Positions 3,062 through 53,173 of a stretch of DNA of 64,000 nucleotides are shown one piece after another (position 1 is the stretch's first letter; each line of letters starts with the position of its first letter). Source of the DNA: an uncultured Solirubrobacteraceae bacterium (GTDB taxonomy: Bacteria > Actinomycetota > Thermoleophilia > Solirubrobacterales > Solirubrobacteraceae); NCBI GenBank assembly GCA_963836035.1, contig CAWIHX010000005.1, positions 118,603 through 182,602 of the forward strand, in the 5' to 3' direction. Below the pieces are notes generated by a model. The model was not told where the DNA came from. It searched no databases and saw nothing but the letters and a program-made list of their open reading frames with translations. The translations under genes and the position numbers were made by a program.

Positions 3062-3113
3062 AGCGGTGAGCCGGCGGGTCGTGCGCTGACGCCGCCGGCT
3101 CGCCCCGACCGCT
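3062..3113. terminator. GC-rich hairpin between convergent genes, probable bidirectional terminator
   Basis: GAGCCGGCGG (3068-3077) and CCGCCGGCTC (3092-3101) form a perfect 10-bp inverted repeat; outer AGCGGT/ACCGCT pair. Confidence 0.5.
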
Positions 3114-4801
3114 CAGATGCGGCCGGCCGTCTCGCGGCGCCCGTTCGAGCGCTCGCGCTTGACGTCGTACATCGCGTGGTCGGCCCGTGCCAGCAGCGTC
3201 TCGGCATCGACCGTCGCCCCACGCGACCAGGCCACGCCGACGCTCGCCACGACGTCCGCGGCCCGTCCGAGCGCGCCCGCCGCCGCTGAGACCGCGAGCC
3301 GGTCGGCGAGCACGCGGGCACTCGCCTCGTCCATCTGGGGGCAGACCACGAGGAACTCGTCGCCGCCGAGCCTGCCGACGTGGTCGTCGATGCGCACGCT
3401 CGCGCGCAGATGACCCGCCACGGCACGCAGCAGCTCGTCGCCGGCGGCGTGGCCGTGCTCGTCGTTGACCTCCTTGAAGCCGTCCAGGTCGATGAAGAGC
3501 ACCGCGCGCTCGTCGCCCTCGGCGATGTCCTGCTCCAGCGAGCGGGTGATCGCGGCCCGGTTCAGGCAGCCGGTGAGTTCGTCGTGGGTCGCGCGGCGGC
3601 GAAGCTCCTCGCGCATCGCGATGCTGTCGCTCACGTCGACAAGGCACGCGATCGCGCCGCTGACCTCGCCGCCCTCGTGCGTGAGCGCTCGCAGGCTGAC
3701 CTGGCAGTGCCGGTCGCGGCCGTCCTGACGTCCGGTCACCGCGACCTCGACCTCGGCGTCGCTCCCGGCCCGCAGGAGCTCCGCGAAGGCCTCTTCGATC
3801 GCCAGCCGGTCGGCCTGGGCCACGTTCGCGAGCTGCTGCGCCGCCGTTTCCGCGCGCGGCGTGCCGAGGATCTCATGCAGGCGGTCGTTCGTGTAGACGA
3901 TCTGCGTGTCGCTGTCGACCTGCATCAGCCCGACGGGGACGGTTTCGGCGAGGCGGTCGAGCAGCTGCTCGCGCGCCCGCAGGTCCTCGTGCGCGGCCAT
4001 CTCCTCGGTGATGTCCACCATCTCGCAGACCACGACGGCGTGCTCGGGGTCGGCCAGCAGGTTGTGGTTGGTGACCTCGAACCAGACCCAGCTGCCGTCC
4101 TTCGCCTGCAGGCGCTGGCGCACGCGGCGCGCCGGCCCCGGACGGGCGAGCATCTGCATCCAGTTGTCGATCGCGAGCGCGTGGTCCTCGGGGTGCACGA
4201 ACTCGAGCGAGCGGTGGTTCAGCATCTCCTCCGGCTCCCAGCCGAGGATCTGCTGGACGGCCTCGTCCACGTGGACCAGGAAGCTCAGCTCGTTCTTGTG
4301 GATCGTCGCGAAACGGGGCCGTTGGGCGACGGTCTCCGAGTCGATCGGCTCGGCTGCGGCGAGGGGATCGGAGGAGGCGAGGAGGGTGAAGACGACGCCG
4401 TGGCGCTCGCGCAGATCGAGCGCGTAGAGGATCACCTCGTCGTAGCCTTCGGGGTGGATCGTGCAGCGGCTGGCTCCGAAGTTCAGCGCGCGGTCCCAGT
4501 TCTCCAGCACGGCTTCCCGGTCCTCGGTGCCGATCAGATCCAGGCCGGAGCGGCCTTCGAGGACCTGGTGTTCGCCGAGCCCGACCGACTCCGGCATCGG
4601 AACGTAGATCCCGGCGGAGGTCATCGCCCCGACCGCCGCCTGCGGGTAGACGGCGAGCAGCGAGCGCAGTGTCTGCTCCAGCGCGTCGGCGTCCGCGTGG
4701 GCGTCGCCTGCCGCTTCGAACAGCTGCCCGTCGAGCTCCGGGGGCTCGCTCTGCGGGCGGTCCGGCACCATCGCGTCGTCGCTGATCGGCTCGGTCTGCA
4801 T
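3113..4801 (-). CDS. PAS-PAS-GGDEF diguanylate cyclase
   Basis: 'FVHPED' PAS motif; 'LFIDLDGFKEVNDEHGHAAGD'; 'RIDDHVGRLGGDEF' with intact GGDEF and RxxD I-site; no EAL domain. Confidence 0.92.
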   Translation of the reverse strand: MQTEPISDDAMVPDRPQSEPPELDGQLFEAAGDAHADADALEQTLRSLLAVYPQAAVGAMTSAGIYVPMPESVGLGEHQVLEGRSGLDLIGTEDREAVLENWDRALNFGASRCTIHPEGYDEVILYALDLRERHGVVFTLLASSDPLAAAEPIDSETVAQRPRFATIHKNELSFLVHVDEAVQQILGWEPEEMLNHRSLEFVHPEDHALAIDNWMQMLARPGPARRVRQRLQAKDGSWVWFEVTNHNLLADPEHAVVVCEMVDITEEMAAHEDLRAREQLLDRLAETVPVGLMQVDSDTQIVYTNDRLHEILGTPRAETAAQQLANVAQADRLAIEEAFAELLRAGSDAEVEVAVTGRQDGRDRHCQVSLRALTHEGGEVSGAIACLVDVSDSIAMREELRRRATHDELTGCLNRAAITRSLEQDIAEGDERAVLFIDLDGFKEVNDEHGHAAGDELLRAVAGHLRASVRIDDHVGRLGGDEFLVVCPQMDEASARVLADRLAVSAAAGALGRAADVVASVGVAWSRGATVDAETLLARADHAMYDVKRERSNGRRETAGRI

Positions 4802-35374: not shown

Positions 35375-36679
35375 ATGGGGAGAGGCGCTTCTCGGACCGC
35401 GCTGGCGGCGCTACGGCTCCTCCCACGCCGCCGCGCGTGCTCCGTCGCTGCGTCGGCGCTGTTCTGCGTGCTCCTGGCGGGCGCGCTTCCCGCCGCGTCT
35501 CAGGCCGCCGAAATCCCCGGCGACCGCGGCTACCTGATGCCCCAAGTGCCGTCCGGCATCGGCGTGGGCATGGCCCAGAACTACGACGTCAAGGAAAAGT
35601 CGAGCGAGGTGGGCCGGATCGATTACGTCTGGGGAGCCAGCTCTCCGCCCGCCCCTGCGAGCGTCTACAACACGGCGTATCTGAAGTACGCGCGCGACCA
35701 GCTGGAAGTGCACCCGCTCTCGTGGTGGACGGCGAACCATCCCACGTGGATCGAGTACAAGTGCCCAAAGGGCAAGGGTAAACGCAAGAGCAAGCCCGCC
35801 TACCAGTTCGGTCACAAGAACGTCCCGCTGGACATCAGCAACCCCGAAGTGCTGGCCTACCAGTGGCAGGAAGAGATCGAGCCGCGCCTCGCCGAAGGCT
35901 ATGCCGGCATGGCGTTGGACAATCTCGAACTGACGAACGAATCCGGGCGCTGCGGCCACTTCGACGCCGCGGGCACATGGGTCCAGCAGTACACCGGCAC
36001 CTCCGGCGATCCGGCGTTCACGCAGTCGGTTCTGGAATGGCTTGCCACGACGCGTGACGAGATCCACGCCTACTCGCCGACGGCGACGGTCTCGATCAAC
36101 TACTCCTACGATCCGCGCGTCAGCGCGGCGGAGAACATGGCGCTGATGGAAGATGCCGACCTCGTCTTCGACGAGCGCGGAGTGACCAACTGGGGGCAGG
36201 CCGGCAACGACCGTCTGGCGCCCGCGCTGTGGCTCGAGGTCTACGAATCGGCGGTCGCGTTGCAGCGAGAGGGGTCCTGCTACGACCTCAACAACGAGTT
36301 CCCCGGCCTATCGACCTCGATCCCGGGGGGCGAACTCGAATGGGCGATCGCCAACTACCTGCTGATCAAGGGCGACTGCGCGTACATCTCGATCAGCGGC
36401 TTCCGTGGCAAGAAGCTGAACCAGCAGGACTACGGCGTCCTGCACTGGTATCCGCAGTACGAAAGAGCGATCGGAGAACCCGCCGGCCCGGCCGCCGAGC
36501 AGCCCTCCGGCGCCTACCTGCGCGAATTCACCGGTGGCGTGGCGCTCGTCAACCCGACGCTCGCCGCGGCGGAAGTCAGCCTGCCGCCGGGGCAGTGGTA
36601 CGACGCGTCGGGCGAACAACTCAGCGGCTCGACGGAGCTGGCCCCCCAGCAGGGGGCTGTGCTCACGAGCTCGCCGTAG
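35375..36679 (+). CDS. Secreted putative glycoside hydrolase (GHL15-like TIM barrel)
   Basis: Signal peptide; 'LDISNPEV', 'GYAGMALDN', 'VFDERG', 'AIANYLL', 'YLREFTGGVALVNP'; TAGACT box 6 nt before ATG. Confidence 0.65.
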   Translation: MGRGASRTALAALRLLPRRRACSVAASALFCVLLAGALPAASQAAEIPGDRGYLMPQVPSGIGVGMAQNYDVKEKSSEVGRIDYVWGASSPPAPASVYNTAYLKYARDQLEVHPLSWWTANHPTWIEYKCPKGKGKRKSKPAYQFGHKNVPLDISNPEVLAYQWQEEIEPRLAEGYAGMALDNLELTNESGRCGHFDAAGTWVQQYTGTSGDPAFTQSVLEWLATTRDEIHAYSPTATVSINYSYDPRVSAAENMALMEDADLVFDERGVTNWGQAGNDRLAPALWLEVYESAVALQREGSCYDLNNEFPGLSTSIPGGELEWAIANYLLIKGDCAYISISGFRGKKLNQQDYGVLHWYPQYERAIGEPAGPAAEQPSGAYLREFTGGVALVNPTLAAAEVSLPPGQWYDASGEQLSGSTELAPQQGAVLTSSP

Positions 36680-43570: not shown

Positions 43571-45561
<1,991 letters not shown>

Positions 45562-45727
45562 ATGATCTGAGCCGGCGGGCGATACCCGCGGCGCGCGAGC
45601 AGAAACTCGTGCAACAAATGCTGCATGGCTAAAGTCGCGACCGCCGCTACGCGATAGGAGCGGTGAAGCAAGCTCGCAGCAAAACGAGCCACGGAGGGGG
45701 CGGAGACTAGAAGCGCTTCCCCGCGTG

Positions 45728-45809
45728 CTCCCGACAAAGGCACTCTCGCCGTGAGGCGAGGTCGCAAAGCCAGGGGTCTCCTCGCGAGACAGCCCAGCTA
45801 CCGAAGGAG
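45728..45809 (+). ncRNA. c-di-GMP-I (GEMM-I) riboswitch
   Basis: CGACAAAGGC-ACT-CTCGCC GTGA GGCGAG-GTC-GCAAAGC-CAG-GG-GTCTC/GAGAC-AG-CC-CA-GC-TACCGAA: GNRA-capped P2, GCAAAGC junction, P3 with tetraloop-receptor-type segment, ACCG 3' end; abuts the RBS of the next gene. Confidence 0.85.
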
Positions 45810-45815
45810 ATCGAC

Positions 45816-47654
45816 ATGCACCTTCCGGCTCGCCGGTTCGCGCTCTTCCTCTGCATCGTCTCACTGCTGACGCTGCTGCCCACCGCCGCATCCGCGGCGC
45901 GGCACCACAGCCGCCAGGCACGCTCGTTCGCGGCCGCCCTGCGCGCCGCATCCGCGCGCTCGAAGGTCGACGACCGCCGTCTGGTCCGCCGGGCCCGCGC
46001 GCTGCGGACCTGCCTGCGCAGCGGCGCTCCCTGCACCCGTCTGCGCCACCGCGTGCAGCACGCGGGGCGCACCTTCACCGCCGCCCAGCGCAACCTCGCG
46101 GCGAAGGCGCGCCACGCCGCCAGCGCAGGCGCGGCCAGCTACGGGCCCACCAGCGCCCCCACGCTGCACGCGAACGGGGTCAAGCTGAACTGGAACGCGA
46201 TCGAGCGCGCCGGCGGCTACGTGGTCGTCAGCGCGGTCCCCGGTCAGCCCTACCACTACGAATACGTGAAACAGAGCTCGGACACGCCGCCGCCGGTCCC
46301 CGGCCAGACCGTCGCCTACGCGGTTCGCACCGCGGTCCGCAACTCACACTGGTCGAACATCGTGAAGATCAGCTACCCGGCCGCGCCGCCCGCCCCGACG
46401 CCGACGCCCCCCGCGGGTCCGCCGGCCGAAGAACTGAACCTGAAGGCGGCCCCGGCGCTGCACGTCTCGGGCCAGACGCTGATGTGGAACCTCGTCGCCA
46501 ACGTCAGCGCCTACATCCTCGAGACGAAGGTGCCGGGCCAGCCCGAAGCCTTCACGGCCGTCAGCGGCACCTCGACGACGCCGCCCGCGGTCCCCGGCAA
46601 GACCGTCACCTACAGCGTCCGCACCGCCGTCGACGGCAGCGCCTGGGCGCCCACCGTCACGATCACCTATCCGGCGACTCCCGCCCCGAAAGAACCCGCT
46701 CCGGCGCCGAAAGAAACGAGCTTCTCCGTTCTCGGCAGCGACGGCTTCGAGCCCGGCATCAACTCCGGCACGAACCCGCAGGACTTCACGGGCGCCACGA
46801 TGCTCGGCGCGAAGGTCGTGCGCATCTCTCTGGCGATCGGCGCGCCGGCCTCGGCGCTGGAATACGCGGTCGCGAACTACGCCGCCAAAGGCATCCGCGT
46901 GGCGCCGCTGGCGTCCTTCTACGGGCGCATCCCGACCCCCGCCGAAGCGCAGAACGTCGCCAGCTGGGCCGCCGAGTTCGGCCCCGGCGGCACCTTCTGG
47001 GCCAAACGGAGCGACGGCAACCTGGCGATCCAGACGATCGAGTTCGGCAACGAGACCTCCTATGGCTACCAGTACGGCGACAGCGCGGGGGCACCCTCCT
47101 ACCAGGCGCGCGCGCAGACCTACGCCGTCCGGCTGAGGGAAGCCGCCGAAGCGATCGGCGCGACCGGCATCAAGGTCGGTGTGCTGGCCGTCGCCGACGA
47201 CCCCTCGGGCAACTGGATGAACGGCATGTTCCAGGCCGTCCCCAACCTCGGCAACTACGTCTCGGGCTGGGTCACCCACCCGTACGGGACCTACGGCAAG
47301 ACCAAGCTGCTCGGCGTGCTCGCGCAGACCGCCGCGCACGGCGCGCCGTCGAACATCCCGATCGACATCACCGAGTGGGGCCTGTCGACCGACAACGGCG
47401 TGTGCGTGGCCGAAAACTACGGCTACAACCCGTGCATGACCTACGCCGAAGCTGCCGAACAGCTCAAGCGCAGCGTCGCGGAAATCAAAACGATCGCCGG
47501 CAGCCGCCTGCGCATGTTCATGCTCTACCAGGTCCGCGACCAGCAGGTGGCGGGCGCGAGCAACGAACGCGAGGCCTTCTTCGGCCTGCTTCAGCACGAA
47601 GACCAGTCGAAGGGCGCCTACACGACCGCAGCGCAGGAACTGCTCGCCCTCTAG
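45816..47654 (+). CDS. Secreted protein: basic helical N-terminus, two FnIII-like repeats, clan GH-A catalytic domain
   Basis: Signal peptide; two ~77-aa repeats ('APTLH...YAVRTAV...ISYPA' / 'APALH...YSVRTAV...ITYPA'); 'IEFGNE', 'THPY', 'ITEWG'. Confidence 0.75.
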   Translation: MHLPARRFALFLCIVSLLTLLPTAASAARHHSRQARSFAAALRAASARSKVDDRRLVRRARALRTCLRSGAPCTRLRHRVQHAGRTFTAAQRNLAAKARHAASAGAASYGPTSAPTLHANGVKLNWNAIERAGGYVVVSAVPGQPYHYEYVKQSSDTPPPVPGQTVAYAVRTAVRNSHWSNIVKISYPAAPPAPTPTPPAGPPAEELNLKAAPALHVSGQTLMWNLVANVSAYILETKVPGQPEAFTAVSGTSTTPPAVPGKTVTYSVRTAVDGSAWAPTVTITYPATPAPKEPAPAPKETSFSVLGSDGFEPGINSGTNPQDFTGATMLGAKVVRISLAIGAPASALEYAVANYAAKGIRVAPLASFYGRIPTPAEAQNVASWAAEFGPGGTFWAKRSDGNLAIQTIEFGNETSYGYQYGDSAGAPSYQARAQTYAVRLREAAEAIGATGIKVGVLAVADDPSGNWMNGMFQAVPNLGNYVSGWVTHPYGTYGKTKLLGVLAQTAAHGAPSNIPIDITEWGLSTDNGVCVAENYGYNPCMTYAEAAEQLKRSVAEIKTIAGSRLRMFMLYQVRDQQVAGASNEREAFFGLLQHEDQSKGAYTTAAQELLAL

Positions 47655-47700
47655 AGCCTCATGCGAGACGGCGCCCGCGGCTCCAGAGCTGCGGGCGCCG

Positions 47701-49215
47701 TCAGCGCACGAACAGCACTTCGCTCGAGGGGCTGCCGCTGAGGCTGACCAGGCCGCTCACCGGCACCCGCGGTTCCCCGGTCGCGACGAAGCGCGTGACG
47801 GCGAAGGCTTCGTTCTTGTCCACCGAGGCGAGCCGGAAGCCGCGCGGAGCCCGCAGCTGGACGTAGGGCGCGTAGGGCGCGCCGGAGGTGTGGCGCGTGC
47901 GCAGGTGCGCGAAGGCGATTTCGCGCACCTTCACCTGGGGCGTGGCCGGGGCGCGCAGCGGTCCGAGGTAGACCGAGAGCGGCGAGCCTCCGTACCGTTC
48001 GACGACGAGCACCCGGGCGTAGGCCGGGCGCTTGGGCAGCGCTTCGGCGACACCGCGCCAGTCGTCGCGCTGGTAGCCCGGCAGCAGGTTCGTCGCCACG
48101 ATCACCGCGGTCGAGATCGCGCACAGCACCGTGCCGATCGCGGCGCCCAGGCGGCCTGCGGCCGCGCAGCCGATCCCGATCGCGATCAGGACCGCGTACG
48201 GGATCCACGCGGCGATCACGTTGCGCCCGTCGAACACGTCGATCAGGTGCCCGGCCGCGAGCAGCAGCGGCAGTGCCACGCCGACGGCGGCGACGATCGC
48301 GGCGTCGCGGGCGCGGTCGCGCTCGGCGCCGCGGGCGCGGGTGAGCAGGAGCCACAGCGCGCCGAGGACGAGCACGCCGCTGATCACTGCGGTGGCGATC
48401 TGCAACGGGCCGTAGAGGCCGACGAGGAACTGCTTGGCGGTCTCGCCGATCCTGGAGACGAGCGAGGATTCTTCGATCCACTTGGCTTTGCCGGAGTTGC
48501 GCTGGTCGATCGCGAGCGGCAGCAGCGCGATCCCGGCCACGGCGACGGCCGCGACCGGCGCCAGCACGCGCCGCCAGCCGAGGCGCCGGGCGAGGATCGC
48601 CGCCTCTCCCACGAACAGGAACGCCGCGAAGTAGTGGGTGAGCAGGGCGAGCACCGAGAAGCCGCCCCACCACGCGAGGCTGCGCCCGTCGCGGCGGACG
48701 GCAGCGCGCTCGAAGAACAGGAACGCGAGAGCGCAGAAGAGGATCAGCAGGGCGTAGGTGCGCGCCTCCTGCGAGTAGTAGTACATCGCCGGGCTCACGG
48801 CCGTCAGGGCCGCCGCCCACCCGGCGACGCGGTCCGAGACCTCGCGGCCGCATGCCCACACGACGGGGATCGTGAGCGTGCCGGCGAGCGCGGAGAGGGT
48901 GCGGAAGCCGATGGGCCCGGTGCCGAACAGCTTCGTCCACACCCACGCCAGCGAGTAGTAGAGCGGGGGCGTCGACTCGCTGGAGGAGAGGTGGGAGATC
49001 ATCGAGGAGAAGGAGCGGTGGACGAGCGCGATCGTGATCGACTCGTCGCCCCAGATCGACTGCACGTCGAGGGTCGCGAAGCGCAGCGCGGCGCCCGCCG
49101 CCGTCAGTGCGACGACGACGAAGAGGGGGGAGGGCCGCCAGCCCGCACGGGTTCCCGGCGCACCGAACTCCCGCGCGCCCGAGTCGGGCCTCTCGGCTCG
49201 TGCGCTCATCGCCAT
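47701..49215 (-). CDS. GT-C fold glycosyltransferase (GT39/PMT_2-like)
   Basis: 'QSIWGDE', 'TPPLYY', 'YYSQEARTYAL', 'LTHY'; TATCCT box 7 nt before ATG. Confidence 0.88.
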   Translation of the reverse strand: MAMSARAERPDSGAREFGAPGTRAGWRPSPLFVVVALTAAGAALRFATLDVQSIWGDESITIALVHRSFSSMISHLSSSESTPPLYYSLAWVWTKLFGTGPIGFRTLSALAGTLTIPVVWACGREVSDRVAGWAAALTAVSPAMYYYSQEARTYALLILFCALAFLFFERAAVRRDGRSLAWWGGFSVLALLTHYFAAFLFVGEAAILARRLGWRRVLAPVAAVAVAGIALLPLAIDQRNSGKAKWIEESSLVSRIGETAKQFLVGLYGPLQIATAVISGVLVLGALWLLLTRARGAERDRARDAAIVAAVGVALPLLLAAGHLIDVFDGRNVIAAWIPYAVLIAIGIGCAAAGRLGAAIGTVLCAISTAVIVATNLLPGYQRDDWRGVAEALPKRPAYARVLVVERYGGSPLSVYLGPLRAPATPQVKVREIAFAHLRTRHTSGAPYAPYVQLRAPRGFRLASVDKNEAFAVTRFVATGEPRVPVSGLVSLSGSPSSEVLFVR

Positions 49216-49282
49216 GGGGGACAGGATAGGTTCGGGCGCGGAGGCCTTGGACGGGTGCTCTACGGATCGGGCGAATGGCCAC

Positions 49283-49335: not shown

Positions 49336-50556
49336 ATGTCCACCGAGCAGGCCGCCATCGCGCGCGGTCGCCCGCCACTTCGGCGCCGGCCGGACGAAGG
49401 GCTGTTCGGCGGGGTCTGCGCCGGCGTCGCTGCGCGCCTCGACCTGAACGTGCGCTTCGTCCGCATCATGGCCGTGCTGCTCGGCGGCGTGGGTGGCATC
49501 GGGCTCGCGGTCTACGCGCTCGCGTGGGCGCTCGTCCCCGTCGCGCCGGAGAGCGAGGGCGCCACGCGGCACTCGGGGGGTGCGCGCGAGGCCCTGATGA
49601 TCATCCTCGGCGTGGTCGCGGTCCAGTGGGTCCTGCGCCGGCTGGGGCTGGGGCTGGGGCAGTCGGTCTTCTGGCCCGCCGTGGTCGGGGTCTGCGGGCT
49701 CGCGCTGGTGTGGCGGCCCACCGTCGGGCCGCCGCCCGCCGCGCCGAGCCCCATGGGCGGCCGCCGCTCGCTGCGCGGGGCGCTGAGAGGGCTCGCGCGA
49801 CTCGACGCGCCCCGGGTCATCCTCGGAGTGCTGATGGTGGCCTTCGCCGTCGCCGCGCTGCTGCACAGCTTCTCGGTGCTCCACAGCCTCGGCACGGCGA
49901 TCGGCGCCGTCGCGATCGTGGCGGGCGTCTTCGGCGCGCTGATCGTGCCGTGGTTCGTGCGGCAGGCGCGCAACCTCGGCTCCGAGCGCGCCGCGCGCAT
50001 CCGTGAGCAGGAGCGCGCCGACGTGGCCGCGCACCTCCACGACTCCGTGCTGCAGACGCTGGCGCTGATCCAGACGCGATCCGGCGAGCCGCAGGAGGTG
50101 GCGGCGCTGGCACGCCGCCAGGAGCGCGAGCTGCGCAGCTGGCTCCACGAGGGGCGCGCTGCTCCCCACGCCGACACGGTCGCCTCCGCACTGCGCCAGG
50201 CCGCCGCGGAGGTCGAGGAGCTGCACCGGGTTCCGATCGAGGTCGTGACGGTCGGCGACAGGCCGCTCGACCCCTCGCTCGAAGCGCTCGTGCTCGCAGC
50301 GCGCGAGGCGATGACCAACGCCGCGAAGTTCTCGGGCAGCAGCCGCGTCGACCTGTTCGCCGAGGTCCGGGAGGGTGACGTCGAGGTCTTCGTGCGCGAC
50401 CGCGGCGTCGGCTTCGACACCCAGGCGGTGCCGCCCGACCGGCGCGGGCTGCGCGACTCGATCCAGGGCCGGATGGAGCGCCACCGCGGGCTCGCCCGCG
50501 TTCGGAGCCGGCCGGGCGAGGGGACCGAGGTCGAGCTGCAGGTGGGCGCAGGGTGA
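49336..50556 (+). CDS. PspC-domain sensor histidine kinase (HisKA_3 type)
   Basis: PspC 'GLFGGVCAGVA...YALAWALVP'; 'AHLHDSVLQTLALI'; 'EAMTNAAK', 'RDRGVGF', 'GEGTEV'. Confidence 0.92.
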   Translation: MSTEQAAIARGRPPLRRRPDEGLFGGVCAGVAARLDLNVRFVRIMAVLLGGVGGIGLAVYALAWALVPVAPESEGATRHSGGAREALMIILGVVAVQWVLRRLGLGLGQSVFWPAVVGVCGLALVWRPTVGPPPAAPSPMGGRRSLRGALRGLARLDAPRVILGVLMVAFAVAALLHSFSVLHSLGTAIGAVAIVAGVFGALIVPWFVRQARNLGSERAARIREQERADVAAHLHDSVLQTLALIQTRSGEPQEVAALARRQERELRSWLHEGRAAPHADTVASALRQAAAEVEELHRVPIEVVTVGDRPLDPSLEALVLAAREAMTNAAKFSGSSRVDLFAEVREGDVEVFVRDRGVGFDTQAVPPDRRGLRDSIQGRMERHRGLARVRSRPGEGTEVELQVGAG

Positions 50557-51254
50557 GCGCCGGGTCCAGGCCGCGGGTCGTGATCGTCGACGATCATCGT
50601 CTCTTCCGGGCGGGGGTCAAGGCGGAGCTCGGGGAGCTGGTGGACGTGGTCGGCGACGCCGGCACCGTCGAGGACGCCGTCGCGACGATCGCGGCGCAGC
50701 GCCCGGACGTGGTCCTGCTCGACGTCCACATGCCCGACGGCGGCGGGGCGGAGGTGATCCGCCGCTCGGCGAGCGGCGAGGCGCCGCCGCGGTTCCTCGC
50801 GCTGTCGGTCTCCGACGCGGCCGAGGACGTGATCGCGGTGATCAGGGCGGGCGCGCGCGGTTACGTGACGAAGACGATCTCGGGGCCCGAGCTCGCGGAC
50901 GCCGTCGCGAGGGTCTCCGAAGGCGACGCGGTGTTCTCACCCAGGCTCGCCGGGTTCGTGCTCGACGCGTTCGCCGCCGCGCCCGCGGGGCGGGCGCATG
51001 GGTCGAGGACCCACCAGCCCGGGGCCCACCCGCCCTCGGACCCCGAGCTCGACCAGCTCACGCCCCGCGAGCGCGAGGTGCTGCGGCACATCGCACGCGG
51101 CTACATGTACAAGGAGATCGCCCGCACGCTGGGGATCTCGGTGAAGACGGTCGAGGCCCACGTCTCGGCGGTGCTCCGCAAGCTGCAGCTCTCGAGCCGC
51201 CACGAGCTGAGCCGGTGGGCCGTGCAGCGCCATCTCGTCAGCTTCGACAGCTGA
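50553..51254 (+). CDS. NarL/LuxR family response regulator
   Basis: 'IVDDH', 'LLDVHMP', 'GYVTK', HTH 'LTPREREVL...SVKTVEAH'. Confidence 0.95.
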   Translation: MSAGSRPRVVIVDDHRLFRAGVKAELGELVDVVGDAGTVEDAVATIAAQRPDVVLLDVHMPDGGGAEVIRRSASGEAPPRFLALSVSDAAEDVIAVIRAGARGYVTKTISGPELADAVARVSEGDAVFSPRLAGFVLDAFAAAPAGRAHGSRTHQPGAHPPSDPELDQLTPREREVLRHIARGYMYKEIARTLGISVKTVEAHVSAVLRKLQLSSRHELSRWAVQRHLVSFDS

Positions 51255-51312: not shown

Positions 51313-51330
51313 CTAGGGGCAATCCCCCAT
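51313..51330. promoter_or_regulatory. Second copy of the inverted-repeat box, upstream of the ABC operon
   Basis: CTAGGGGCAATCCCCCAT, 13/18 identical to 49283-49300; ends 22 bp before AAGAGT (51353-51358). Confidence 0.5.
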
Positions 51331-51389
51331 TGAGACCGACGGACCTCGGCGCAAGAGTTCTCCAGGCCCCGCAACCCGGAAGGAGTGGC

Positions 51390-52382
51390 ATGGCAGCAAG
51401 CGCAGAGCACGAGCGTGAGGCGTCCGGCGCCGCCGCGATCGAGACGCACGGCCTGACAAAGCGTTTCGGCGAGCGAGCCGCGATCGACAGCGTCGACCTG
51501 CAGGTTCCCCGCGGCTGCGCGTTCGGCTTCCTCGGCCCGAACGGCGCCGGGAAGACGACGCTCATCCGCACGCTTCTCGGTCTCACGACGGCGAGCTCGG
51601 GCACGATGAGCCTGCTCGGGCTGCCCGTCCCGTCCCAGCGCGTCGCGGCGCTGCGCCGCGTCGGCGCGATCGTCGAGGAGCCGCGCTTTCACATGCACCT
51701 GACCGGGCGCGAGAACCTGCGCGTGGTGGCGGCCGCCCGCGGCCCGGAGATCCGCTCGCGGATCGAGCCGGCGCTGGCGCGGGTCGGCCTCACCGCGCGT
51801 GGGGGGGACCGCGTCGCGAAGTACTCGATGGGCATGCGCCAGCGGCTCGGCGTCGCTCGCTGCCTGCTGGCCGACCCGCAGCTGCTGATCCTCGACGAGC
51901 CGACCAACGGTCTCGACCCGGGCGGTATCCAGGAGTTCAGGGAGATGATCCGGGCGATGGTCGAGCAGGAGGGCCGGACGGTGTTCGTCTCCTCCCATCT
52001 CCTCGACGAGGTCGAAAGGACCTGCGACGCGGCCGCGATCGTGGATCGCGGCCGCGTCATCACGCAGGGACCGGTCGCCGAGCTCGCCGGCGGGAGCGCG
52101 AGGAGCGAGCTGATCCTCGAGCTCGACGACCCCGACCGCGCATTGGCGCTGCTGGACGTCGACGAGCAGATCGTCGCGGTGCGCCGCTCGCACGAGGGGC
52201 TGCGCGTCGTGCTCGCGGCCGGCGACGGCGAGTACGGGGCTGCGGCCGCTCGCCTGAACGCGGCGCTTGTGACGGCCGGGATCGGCGTGATGCGGCTCGA
52301 GCCGGTCCGCCACAGCCTCGAGCAGCGCTTTCTCGAGATCACCACGAGGTTGGAATCGGCCGATGAGGAGGTGCCGGCATGA
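51390..52382 (+). CDS. ABC exporter ATP-binding protein (BcrA-like)
   Basis: 'GPNGAGKTT', 'YSMGMRQRL', 'ILDEPTNGLD', 'SSH'; AAGGAG RBS. Confidence 0.93.
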   Translation: MAASAEHEREASGAAAIETHGLTKRFGERAAIDSVDLQVPRGCAFGFLGPNGAGKTTLIRTLLGLTTASSGTMSLLGLPVPSQRVAALRRVGAIVEEPRFHMHLTGRENLRVVAAARGPEIRSRIEPALARVGLTARGGDRVAKYSMGMRQRLGVARCLLADPQLLILDEPTNGLDPGGIQEFREMIRAMVEQEGRTVFVSSHLLDEVERTCDAAAIVDRGRVITQGPVAELAGGSARSELILELDDPDRALALLDVDEQIVAVRRSHEGLRVVLAAGDGEYGAAAARLNAALVTAGIGVMRLEPVRHSLEQRFLEITTRLESADEEVPA

Positions 52383-53173
52383 GCGCCGCCGTCGCCACGC
52401 AGATGATCGGCGCCGACTTCCTGAAGCTGCGCAAGCGCCGCGGCACGCTTGCGTGGTCGCTGCTGCTGATGCTCGTGCCGCTCCTGCTGTACTTCATCGT
52501 CAGCGCCGCTCAGCACTCGTCGAACCCGGCCGAACACGCTCCCGCAGGCGGCGTCAACGGGTACCAGGACGCGCTGCGGATCCTCGCCGTCTTCTTCGGG
52601 CCGCTGGCGGCGATCCTGATCGGCACCGATGCCGGCGCGGGCGATGTCGCCGCGGGTGTGTTCCGCGACCTCGTCGTGACCGGGCGCTCGCGACTGGCCC
52701 TGTTCGCCACGCGTGTGCCGGCCGCGATCGCACTCACCTGGCTGGTCGCGCTGGCCGGCTATGCCGTCGCGACGATCGGGACCTACGCGCTCGCGGACGG
52801 CGCGGCCACGCCGGACGCTGCCGCGATCCTCAACGGGCTCGGGTTCACCCTGCTCTCGACGGGCGTCATCTGCGCGGTGGCCGTGGGCTTCTCCTCGCTG
52901 ACGGCCTCCAAGCCCGCCGCGATCGTCGTGCTGATCGGCTGGCAGCTGGTCGCGAGCCCGATCCTCGCCAACATCACCTCGCTCGGGAGCGCGCGCGAGC
53001 TCGTGCTCCGCGAAGCGATCGACCACTTCAGCCCCGTGGGGCTCGGCGACCGGCCGGGGCGCGGCGGGGAGACCCTGACGCTGAGCCCCGGCACCGCGGT
53101 GGTCGTGATCGCCGCTTGGCTCGCCGTGTTCCTCGTGCTGGGTGCGTGGCGCACACGCACGATGGACGCATGA
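52379..53173 (+). CDS. ABC-2 type permease
   Basis: Six TM segments; ATGA coupling to the ATPase gene. Confidence 0.85.
   Translation: MSAAVATQMIGADFLKLRKRRGTLAWSLLLMLVPLLLYFIVSAAQHSSNPAEHAPAGGVNGYQDALRILAVFFGPLAAILIGTDAGAGDVAAGVFRDLVVTGRSRLALFATRVPAAIALTWLVALAGYAVATIGTYALADGAATPDAAAILNGLGFTLLSTGVICAVAVGFSSLTASKPAAIVVLIGWQLVASPILANITSLGSARELVLREAIDHFSPVGLGDRPGRGGETLTLSPGTAVVVIAAWLAVFLVLGAWRTRTMDA

Follow-up and report, generated by a model that had tools for sequence, protein, structure and literature searches.

The aptamer and its ligand pocket

The stretch of DNA analysed here (the window, 64 kb) holds on its forward strand a predicted riboswitch aptamer, 45730..45806, directly in front of a gene for a 612-residue protein (45816..47654), with a candidate promoter and two predicted hairpins upstream and a convergent glycosyltransferase gene downstream. 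When the window was searched with the Rfam covariance models, a single match was obtained, a c-di-GMP-I aptamer of clan CL00126 that was best described by RF03167 (65.3 bits against a gathering score of 59; E 3.5e-13, computed over the whole 64 kb); an overlapping weaker match of the same clan was removed by clan competition. Gathering-level Rfam matches were also obtained just upstream of the orthologous gene in 13 of 15 related loci. With a home-made covariance model, which is a sequence-like profile and was used solely for harvesting homologues, the aptamer was found at ~72 of 80 Solirubrobacterales loci encoding the same protein. One homologue, L026, carries a degenerate aptamer of 28 bits.

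Pair statistics were calculated for 69 distinct homologous aptamers from an independent MAFFT alignment, using a structure string that was generated and checked by script. Covariation support for the P1/P2/P3 three-way junction was found in these homologues: 90.7% of the cells were paired, compared with 29-49% in slid registers, double-sided changes were seen in 45 cells vs 5.7 in shuffles, and P2 showed compensatory CG<->UA changes in 15 and 24 sequences. Judged from its sequence and covariation, the RNA is a true riboswitch of c-di-GMP class I, and a canonical one. A sequence-only reading of this DNA had proposed such a GEMM-I aptamer and had assigned the G20-equivalent to AAAGGC and the C92-equivalent to TACCG. 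Both assignments (G45739 and C45801) were confirmed, and the proposal is borne out by the Rfam match, by these two nucleotides and by A47.

All parts of the aptamer lie on the forward strand. Model alignment places the G20-equivalent at 45739, a G in 69/69 homologues. It is followed by P2 (45740..45765), with the pairs G45740-C45765 and C45741-G45764, an internal loop ACU/GUC, a stem of 45745-50 with 45755-60 and a GUGA tetraloop at 45751-54. The C44-equivalent within this helix (45763) is the interhelical partner of G45792, the G83-equivalent, and the two are C-G in 68/69 homologues. The A47-equivalent stands at 45766 (A in 69/69), and P3 (45768..45799) extends from A45768-U45799 through C45780-G45786, with bulges at A45772 and A45791/G45792 and a loop at 45781-85. 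The C92-equivalent at 45801 is C in 67/69 and U in two (L025 and L073). In Vc2, G20 contacts G-alpha of the ligand and C92 is the Watson-Crick partner of G-beta (PMC5888326, PMC4744006), and the C44-G83 pair has been called universally conserved in GEMM riboswitches (PMC4744006). As the alignment shows, none of the nucleotides known for ligand contacts or tertiary pairing is lost from its equivalent position: G20, A47, C92 and the C44-G83 pair are all present. Since the G20/A47/C92 triad is canonical, we regard it as an ordinary predicted c-di-GMP sensor.

The aptamer is like RF01051 and Vc2 of Vibrio cholerae in its three-helix junction, its triad, its C44-G83 pair and the GNRA tetraloop on P2. 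It differs in that the Shine-Dalgarno (SD) sequence is fused to P1, and in the details of P2 and P3. The RF01051 consensus has an 11-nt CUAAG/UAUG tetraloop receptor in P3, which is absent here; a plain GUCUC/GAGAC helix stands in its place, and its UCU/AGA part is invariant in the 69 homologues. The tetraloop is GAAA in RF01051 vs G(C/U)GA here, with GCGA, GUGA or GCAA, all GNRA-type, in 69/69 homologues. Under the known GNRA-helix rules, which we apply to the UCU/AGA helix, a plain helix may serve as the tetraloop receptor. The P2 internal loop, ACT (45742-44) / GTC (45761-63), had been called unusual. It does differ from the AAA/GAC of RF01051, which is also the consensus of RF03167, but the form A-C-Y / N-Y-C is the norm for the order, with C at the second position in 67/69 homologues.

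The top-scoring model, RF03167, describes a 'GGC' variant, and we derived the meaning of this name from a comparison of both Rfam consensus sequences, in which a change of A47 to G is the sole binding-site difference from RF01051. Like RF03167, the window has a P3 that lacks the receptor and a P1 annotated as ending in ...CCGAAG, yet at the distinguishing position it has A (CGCAAAG vs the consensus CGCGAAG), as do 69/69 homologues, and an automatic 'GGC variant' label would therefore mislead. RF03167 scored higher than RF01051 for the window and for 6 of the 13 related loci, while seven were assigned to RF01051 (40-52 bits, threshold 35), so that orthologous aptamers vary between the models (59-65 bits with RF03167 vs 40-52 bits with RF01051). 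The top score of RF03167 is probably due to the common receptor-less, GC-rich P3 and not to the binding pocket. This is relevant to automated annotation: a 'GGC variant' call can reflect likeness of the scaffold in an aptamer with a canonical pocket. The 3',3'-cGAMP riboswitches (GEMM-Ib), such as Gs1761 of Geobacter, share the fold and the clan, but they have A at the G20 position, which is G here and in all 69 homologues. The G20A mutant of a c-di-GMP aptamer binds cGAMP (PMC7288161).

The earlier description of the locus as an undescribed system was an overstatement, as this class of RNA is well known. What is new here is the gene partner of the riboswitch and its candidate promoter. Literature searches gave no paper on c-di-GMP riboswitches combined with a glycosyl hydrolase, and none on such riboswitches in Solirubrobacter.

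The regulated gene and its neighbours

The gene behind the aptamer (45816..47654, forward strand, GC3 0.91) was delimited as an open reading frame and translated. In its 612-aa product a signal peptide and a helical region are followed by two domains of the beta-sandwich type, and residues ~305-612 at the C-terminus form a clan GH-A (beta/alpha)8 barrel. No sequence match to the protein was found by phmmer and profile searches of Pfam, NCBIfam and PDB; hints to Glyco_hydro_cc and Cellulase appeared at E ~0.08 only, in 1-2 of 30 members. The domain family is rare (~520 clusters among 1.8 billion representatives), and in distant relatives it is found joined to GH5, CBM32-like and PKD domains, an indirect hint that it may hydrolyse a glycan.

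The barrel domain was modelled with AF2 at high confidence (pLDDT 93.3, pTM 0.91), and a Foldseek search with this model gave 406 PDB matches at E <= 0.001. The top families were GH39, GH53, GH26, GH5, GH2 and GH1, and all strong matches were GH-A. Two motifs, E409-F-G-N412-E413 and T519-E520-W-G, do not vary among 30 homologues. The first lies where strand 407-410 ends and the second where strand 516-521 ends, the places taken in GH-A enzymes by the acid/base (N-E, behind strand 4) and the nucleophile (E, behind strand 7). On the structural model, the product is a secreted, so far unclassified clan GH-A glycoside-hydrolase-like enzyme; a secreted glycoside hydrolase had indeed been foreseen. 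A family of proteins that so far bore no label but 'hypothetical' now gains a regulatory signal.

The best structural match was PslG of Pseudomonas aeruginosa, the GH39 hydrolase of the Psl exopolysaccharide (PDB 4zn2, 5bx9, 9g17), which aligned to the catalytic domain with a Foldseek E of 1e-11, a query-normalised TM of 0.6 and 16-17% identity. Structures of GH53, GH26, GH158 and GH5 scored nearly as well. PslG likewise has the GH-A barrel, with both catalytic residues placed alike (the acid/base behind strand 4, the nucleophile behind strand 7), and is exported, as is predicted here. It is without the N-terminal helical region and the two beta-sandwich domains of the window protein, and the genomic partner here is a GT-C gene and not a psl-type cluster. 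No sequence profile places the protein in GH39 or in any Pfam GH family.

The convergent gene downstream encodes a GT-C glycosyltransferase (PMT_2; 47701..49215, reverse strand; PF13231, E 8.6e-14, 52.5 bits vs a cut-off of 26.1). An alternative reading frame at 47651-49282 was rejected as the wrong frame (GC3 0.56 vs 0.94 for 47701-49215). A GT-C gene adjoins the hydrolase gene in 50 of 80 related loci, co-directionally downstream in 35 and convergently in 15, and the proposed link between the two is thereby stronger than could be seen from the window alone. By gene order, the adjoining GT-C gene is usually co-directional with the hydrolase gene, in an apparently operon-like arrangement, and the enzyme may work together with this glycosyltransferase on a cell-surface or extracellular glycan. 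The idea of a matrix-dispersal enzyme is speculation; the common pairing with a GT-C gene fits glycan remodelling and dispersal equally well. A link to the GGDEF cyclase of the window (3113-4801, minus strand) was not upheld either: it lies 41 kb away with unrelated housekeeping genes between, and hence nothing ties it to the riboswitch locus.

The candidate promoter and the leader

A candidate sigma-28/WhiG-type promoter was recognised by its motif on the forward strand ~98 nt upstream of P1. It reads TAAA-N16-CGCGATAG, with TAAA as the -35 element (45630..45633) and CGCGATAG as the -10 element (45650..45657), the latter having a central CGA as in GCCGATAA. Two forward-strand leader hairpins were predicted downstream of it, the first (GCUCG-loop-CGAGC) at 45672..45689 in constrained folds and the second at 45692..45723, directly 5' of P1. 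A hairpin of different sequence occupies the position of the second in L010-L013 as well. A scan of 45450-45950 found no sigma-70 promoter. Transcript evidence was also sought, and the sequence was found only in soil and rhizosphere DNA metagenomes (word shares at most 0.19).

The promoter motif is conserved in position. In 14 related loci CTAA..G and GCGAT are invariant and the spacer varies. The motif (T[AC]AA|CTCA)-N16/17-NNCGA was present in 50 of 74 loci (shuffles: 2.6 +/- 1.6), with a cluster at -81 to -108 relative to P1; positional conservation was seen in ~41 of the 74, where ~2.6 would be expected. The published WhiG2 consensus is T(A/C)AA-N16-GCCGATAA (PMC12871210), and the candidate, in the form TAAA-N16-nnCGATAn, fits it: TAAA, the N16 spacer and CGA match, and positions 1-2 of the -10 element are CG where the consensus has GC, giving two mismatches. 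The published search rule for WhiG (T(A/C)AA-N16-GCCGA with central CGA, within 200 bp of the start codon) allows one mismatch, and because of the two -10 positions the window motif fails this strict rule by one mismatch. Many relatives match the WhiG consensus exactly, with GCCGAAAG.

RsiG loaded with c-di-GMP sequesters WhiG, and the Thermoleophilia, of which the Solirubrobacterales are part, encode WhiG and a single-motif RsiG (PMC12871210, PMC8325347). Compared with this RsiG-(c-di-GMP)-WhiG switch of Actinomycetota, the promoter in the window is assigned purely by motif and positional conservation. Transcription would start ~60 nt upstream of the aptamer, and the candidate promoter suggests that two c-di-GMP locks of the same sign may act on the hydrolase gene.

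Expression platform and proposed direction of switching

P1 is formed on the forward strand by CUCCCG (45728..45733) and CG-AA-GGAG (45802..45809). According to the Rfam alignment C45732 and G45733 belong to the core of P1, and CUCC (45728-31) is an anti-SD-like extension, which can pair with the SD sequence GGAG (45806-09), 6 nt (ATCGAC) before the ATG at 45816-45818. The sequence details given in the sequence-only reading (CTCC, GGAG, the 6-nt spacing and the ATG) were all correct, and its placing of the SD within the 3' strand of P1 agrees with the coordinates and with CCGAAGGAG, which is near-invariant in the 69 homologues, with the start codon 5-12 nt downstream. The pairs of the P1 extension are formed in 43-67 of the 69 homologues, depending on the pair, and all four in 30/69 in the present register vs at most 13 in any other register. 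True covariation in the extension cannot be seen, since the ribosome dictates what the SD must be.

In constrained folds with the aptamer enforced, the SD of the window paired with 45728-31 at a probability of 0.94-1.0. Across the 69 homologues the mean SD-P1 pairing probability was 0.62, with values of at least 0.9 in most close relatives of the window and weak pairing (0-0.4) in distant clades with the 5' strand CACACG. In unconstrained folding of the window the SD paired with UCUCC in the 5' strand of P3, and RNAfold therefore gave similar SD accessibility for the free and the aptamer-enforced RNA; thermodynamic folding alone does not discriminate the direction of switching. No intrinsic terminator was found in the scan of 45450-45950 or between the aptamer and the ATG, a gap of only 10 nt with no room for one. 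An upstream anti-sequestor, in which GGAG at 45693-96 would pair with CUCC at 45728-31, was considered and dropped; the simpler hairpin at 45692-45723 leaves CUCC free.

Because the 5' strand of P1 is extended by CUCC, a closed P1 would bury GGAG 6 nt from the AUG. The OFF direction is favoured by this architecture, by the conserved anti-SD-like 5' strand and by the candidate WhiG-type promoter of the same sign, which makes a translational OFF switch the best-supported mechanism, and a plausible one, as far as the sequence can tell. Binding of c-di-GMP would lock P1, hide the ribosome-binding site and block initiation of translation; at low c-di-GMP, P1 would breathe, the 30S subunit could bind and the enzyme would be made. 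We thus consider it likely that the locus is a canonical c-di-GMP-I riboswitch in the leader of a secreted GH-A-like gene, with the ligand-bound P1 hiding the SD. It would be a clean natural case of a c-di-GMP-I aptamer in which P1 itself is the SD sequestor, a minimal translational platform.

The same elements could be read as a translational ON switch, in which the SD is trapped by UCUCC of P3 (45777-81) until c-di-GMP stabilises P3, and pairing by the short P1 extension does not suffice to keep the ribosome out. Unconstrained folds allow for this, as GGAG pairs with 45778-81 at a probability of 0.26-0.85, varying with the transcript ends, in a fold within ~1-2 kcal/mol of the aptamer fold, and in V. 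cholerae the c-di-GMP-I riboswitch Vc1 acts as an ON switch (PMC4744006). The alternative helix, however, exceeds a probability of 0.5 in only 7/69 homologues, and close relatives, L002 and L021 among them, do not have it; it was rejected as a conserved OFF-state element. The constancy of UCUC/GAGA is explained within the aptamer, where these strands pair as the P3 helix opposite the P2 tetraloop. Moreover, P3 is transcribed and able to fold before the SD exists, and P1, which the aptamer requires, itself contains the SD. An ON switch would also be self-defeating behind a WhiG-type promoter silenced by c-di-GMP, and we regard this direction as unlikely.

Control mainly at the level of the transcript, by Rho-dependent termination or mRNA decay, would make polarity effects useful in the 35 related loci where a co-directional GT-C gene follows, and the degenerate L026 aptamer (28 bits) might speak for a decaying relic without regulatory effect. 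Against these readings stand the 10 nt between aptamer and AUG without a terminator, and the strong purifying selection on the aptamer throughout the order, in which no functional nucleotide has been given up. We consider both improbable, and effects on the transcript would most simply follow from blocked translation, hence being compatible with translational control. A ligand other than c-di-GMP, either that of the 'GGC' variant or cGAMP, is very improbable: the higher score of RF03167 in the window and 6 of 13 loci and the ACU/GUC instead of AAA/GAC loop could be cited for it, but A47 is retained in the window and all 69 homologues, without the one pocket difference, G20 is not the A of cGAMP-type aptamers, and the score of RF03167 probably stems from the P3 scaffold; orthologues move between the models.

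Taken with the candidate promoter, the preferred OFF switch would mean that c-di-GMP-loaded RsiG sequesters WhiG and the gene is shut off at both transcription and translation. It is possible, if rather doubtful, that the GH-A hydrolase gene of the Solirubrobacterales, usually in an operon with the GT-C gene, is subject to two c-di-GMP locks, independent and alike in sign, WhiG/RsiG and the riboswitch. If so, they would form an AND-gate in which the enzyme is synthesised only at truly low c-di-GMP, and would represent the first convergence of a sigma/anti-sigma switch and a riboswitch on one gene, joining the RNA-based and the protein-based c-di-GMP output routes of Actinomycetota. The programme that runs at low c-di-GMP (dispersal or pilus) would then include a new module for glycan remodelling. 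We know of no reported WhiG target that also carries a c-di-GMP riboswitch. A related arrangement is Cd1, a c-di-GMP-I OFF riboswitch in front of the flgB-sigD operon of Clostridioides difficile, which works by transcription termination and is likewise tied to a sigma-28-family regulon. Cd1 precedes the gene of the sigma factor, whereas here a sigma-28-type promoter would drive the riboswitch-gated target, and control would be translational.

Aptamer class and conservation

When all Rfam families were scanned against the 64-kb window, the sole match above the gathering score was c-di-GMP-I-GGC (RF03167, clan CL00126), a full-model match at 45730-45806 on the forward strand (65.3 bits, threshold 59; E 3.5e-13). 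A permissive Rfam scan of the 341 bases around the aptamer gave nothing further beyond noise. The sequence-only reading had proposed a c-di-GMP-I riboswitch here, and its landmarks were all found when the sequence was read directly: CTCC at 45728-31, GGAG at 45806-09 with the ATG six bases on at 45816, and the pocket bases G45739 within AAAGGC and C45801 within TACCG.

The consensus of RF01051 (...GGGACGCAAAgCc...) has a P3 with a CUAAgg / cuAuG receptor, and that of RF03167 (...GGGACGCGAAgCc...) has a plain P3. Within the ligand pocket they differ at one base only, the first A downstream of GACGC, corresponding to A47 in the prototype Vc2. In Vc2 the ligand is contacted by G20, A47 and C92, and C44-G83 is a universally conserved interhelical pair (PMC4744006; PMC5888326). 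Because the A47 position alone separates the two pockets, the label ‘GGC’ most likely denotes G20-G47-C92. The window reads CGCAAAG in this region and its pocket is therefore the canonical G-A-C, so a true ‘GGC’ variant was rejected. RF03167 seems to outscore RF01051 in the window owing to the common receptor-less P3. Six of the orthologous aptamers passed the RF03167 threshold (59.6-65.4 bits) and seven defaulted to RF01051 (40-52 bits). The RNA in the window belongs to the c-di-GMP-I class. A cGAMP-type aptamer was likewise rejected, as G20 was G in 69/69 aptamers.

Homologues of the downstream protein were detectable in 623 cases; every named one is annotated as a ‘hypothetical protein’ and comes from Solirubrobacteraceae or Solirubrobacterales. 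With one genome scanned per species, 80 related loci were obtained. In 13 of 15 loci sampled with Rfam an aptamer lay directly 5' of the homologue, and a home-made model placed one in 72 of the 80. Six aptamer-less loci with intact upstream sequence encode shorter paralogues starting near residue 113, and some genomes with such a paralogue also contain a riboswitch-bearing copy. In a MAFFT alignment of 69 distinct aptamers with an explicit structure, 90.7% of the cells were paired, compared with 29-49% in slid registers, and compensatory changes in P2 (CG<->UA and UA<->CG) occurred in 15 and 24 sequences. The pocket was nearly invariant (A47 was A in 69/69, C92 was C in 67/69), as were the interhelical positions (C44 in 69/69, G83 in 68/69), and the P2 loop was GCGA, GUGA or GCAA in every sequence. 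The P2 internal loop, ACT (45742-44) / GTC (45761-63), had been read correctly, but it is the lineage norm rather than unusual as had been claimed: A23 and C44 are fixed, the remaining four positions are mostly pyrimidines, and AAA/GAC was found in just 1 of the 69.

Several loci stood out. The C92-equivalent is U in L025:3773-3859 and L073:3371-3457 (CCATCGAAGG), with G20 and A47 retained, and ligand specificity could be altered or relaxed in these two RNAs. The degenerate aptamer at L026:3868-3954 (28 bits) has lost the J1/2 AAAGGC; the orthologue that follows it and the GT-C gene are otherwise intact, and the RNA looks like a riboswitch in decay. A Conexibacter MAG (L064) carries tandem paralogous hydrolase genes, each with its own aptamer (1661-1746 and 3758-3845); riboswitch and gene were duplicated as a single unit. 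A contig labelled ‘Chlamydiae bacterium’ (L015, CAJCHW010000064.1) has a Solirubrobacterales-type aptamer, hydrolase and GT-C gene; this MAG contig was probably mis-binned or mislabelled.

Direction of the switch

Across the homologous aptamers CCGAAGGAG was near-invariant, and the start codon followed GGAG by 5-12 nt. The Rfam P1 of the window already includes G45806, the first base of the Shine-Dalgarno sequence (SD), and CUCC at 45728-31 pairs with the whole GGAG at 45806-09 when an AA bulge is allowed for. These four P1 extension pairs were formed in 43, 46, 67 and 53 of the 69 sequences; all four were present together in 30/69, compared with at most 13/69 in any register further upstream. 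True covariation is impossible here because the ribosome fixes the SD. With the aptamer helices enforced in ViennaRNA, the SD paired with 45728-31 at a probability of 0.94-1.0. The mean over the 69 homologues was 0.62, with high values in the window's clade and low values in distant clades with the 5' strand CACACG. No terminator-like site was found near the aptamer, and the gap between aptamer and AUG is only 10 nt.

The most likely mechanism, which we favor with some reservation, is translational repression via P1, as the sequence-only reading had proposed: binding of c-di-GMP would lock P1, bury the SD and repress translation. Riboswitches whose P1 includes the SD follow a standard design. 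The RNA could in principle act as an ON switch instead, with the SD held by UCUCC of the P3 5' strand. The unconstrained fold of the window does prefer this pairing, at an energy no more than 1-2 kcal/mol from that of the aptamer fold, but the alternative helix was dominant in just 7/69 homologues and was missing from near-identical relatives, and for these reasons we treat it as incidental.

The hydrolase and its neighbors

The gene under the predicted OFF switch (45816-47654, forward strand) encodes 612 aa with a GC3 of 0.91. By inspection, its N-terminus, MHLPARRFALFLCIVSLLTLLPTAASA/A, looks like a signal peptide, with basic residues first, then a hydrophobic core and an AxA site. No sequence match was found in Pfam, NCBIfam or PDB, also with a 30-sequence profile. 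The AlphaFold model consists of a helical segment, two beta-sandwich domains and a C-terminal barrel, which modelled alone reached a pLDDT of 93.3 and a pTM of 0.91. In a Foldseek search against the PDB, the structure nearest to the barrel was PslG, the GH39 Psl-exopolysaccharide hydrolase of P. aeruginosa (E 1e-11, TM 0.6), followed by GH53 galactanases, GH26 lichenase, GH158, GH5, GH2 and GH1, all of them clan GH-A at 10-17% identity. The homologues share two invariant motifs, E409-F-G-N-E413 where strand 4 ends and T519-E520-W-G where strand 7 ends, a layout that matches the acid/base and nucleophile arrangement of clan GH-A. The claim of a secreted glycoside hydrolase is thus well supported at the fold level. 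An exhaustive search for the domain returned just 521 cluster representatives among 1.84 billion, and the family appears to be unclassified. Larger relatives have the domain fused to GH5 ‘Cellulase’, F5/8-type-C and PKD domains.

The convergent gene at 47701-49215 (reverse strand) encodes a GT-C glycosyltransferase, as judged from its PMT_2 domain. Its proposed tie to the hydrolase was borne out, a homologue adjoining the hydrolase gene in 50/80 loci: directly downstream and co-directional in 35, with gaps mostly of 5-100 nt, and convergent in 15, which make up the window's clade. The co-directional order points to a predicted two-gene operon headed by the riboswitch in most species, and the survival of the pairing through inversion speaks for the two working as a functional couple on the same glycan.

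The upstream neighbor, an acetyl-CoA synthetase gene, shows linkage in the window's clade alone. The window encodes a single GGDEF protein, a PAS-PAS-GGDEF diguanylate cyclase with an intact GGDEF motif (3113-4801, reverse strand). It had been counted as part of the system, but it lies 41 kb from the riboswitch, with purine, glycolysis and other housekeeping genes between, and no linkage is evident. A 434-aa protein 9 kb upstream (35375-36679, forward strand) gave a weak match to GHL15, hypothetical glycosyl hydrolase family 15 (E 2.3e-7), and would be a further carbohydrate-active candidate. Downstream of the GT-C gene, a LuxR-type response regulator (50553-51254) and an ABC-2 transporter pair (51330-53173), all on the forward strand, are syntenic in the window's close relatives only (9 loci).

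Candidate promoter and leader

Alignment of the leaders from 14 loci of the window's clade revealed two invariant islands, CTAA-G and GCGAT, 16-17 nt apart in variable surroundings. They correspond to a candidate sigma-28/WhiG-type promoter at 45629-45657 (forward strand), with TAAA (45630-33), N16 and CGCGATAG (45650-57). Published consensuses are CTCA-N16/17-GCCGAACT for WhiG1 and T(A/C)AA-N16-GCCGATAA for WhiG2, with conservation highest at the central CGA in both (PMC12871210). We call the promoter a candidate because its -10 falls one mismatch outside the strict published rule. Searching 160 nt 5' of each aptamer in 74 loci for (T[AC]AA|CTCA)-N16/17-NNCGA gave the motif in 50, about 41 of them within a narrow band at -81 to -108 from the aptamer; shuffles gave 2.6 +/- 1.6 and control windows from coding regions 7. 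The usual -10 was (C/G/A)CCGAAAG, most relatives having CTCA/T(A/C)AA-N16/17-(G/C/A)CCGAAAG.

The anti-sigma factor RsiG must carry c-di-GMP to sequester WhiG, and single-motif RsiG-WhiG pairs occur in Thermoleophilia, Conexibacter and Patulibacter among them (PMC8325347). Both genera are Solirubrobacterales. If the promoter is real, c-di-GMP would shut both transcription and translation of the hydrolase gene, and this shared sign lends the OFF direction additional, circumstantial support. A literature search found nothing on the riboswitch-hydrolase/GT-C target, its order-wide conservation or double c-di-GMP control. The order-wide conservation of the riboswitch-hydrolase arrangement is new, as is the predicted target, a PslG-like family of clan GH-A that appears unclassified and is coupled to a GT-C enzyme; double control of the hydrolase is a possible third novelty.

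Palindromes occur just upstream of the candidate -35 (GTGCA-N8-TGCAT at 45609-45625 in the window), and inverted repeats resembling GGACAtccGTCC occur in other clades, about 100-130 nt before the aptamer; a regulator may use these sites as an operator. A few bases 3' of the -10, many clades (e.g. L074, L080 and L012) share TGCAN-N2-3-CT(C/A)AAG, degenerate in the window (45664-45679), which could be a start-site region or a binding site. Directly 5' of P1 lies a GC-rich hairpin without a U-tract (45692-45723), and a hairpin of different sequence occupies the same position in L010-L013.
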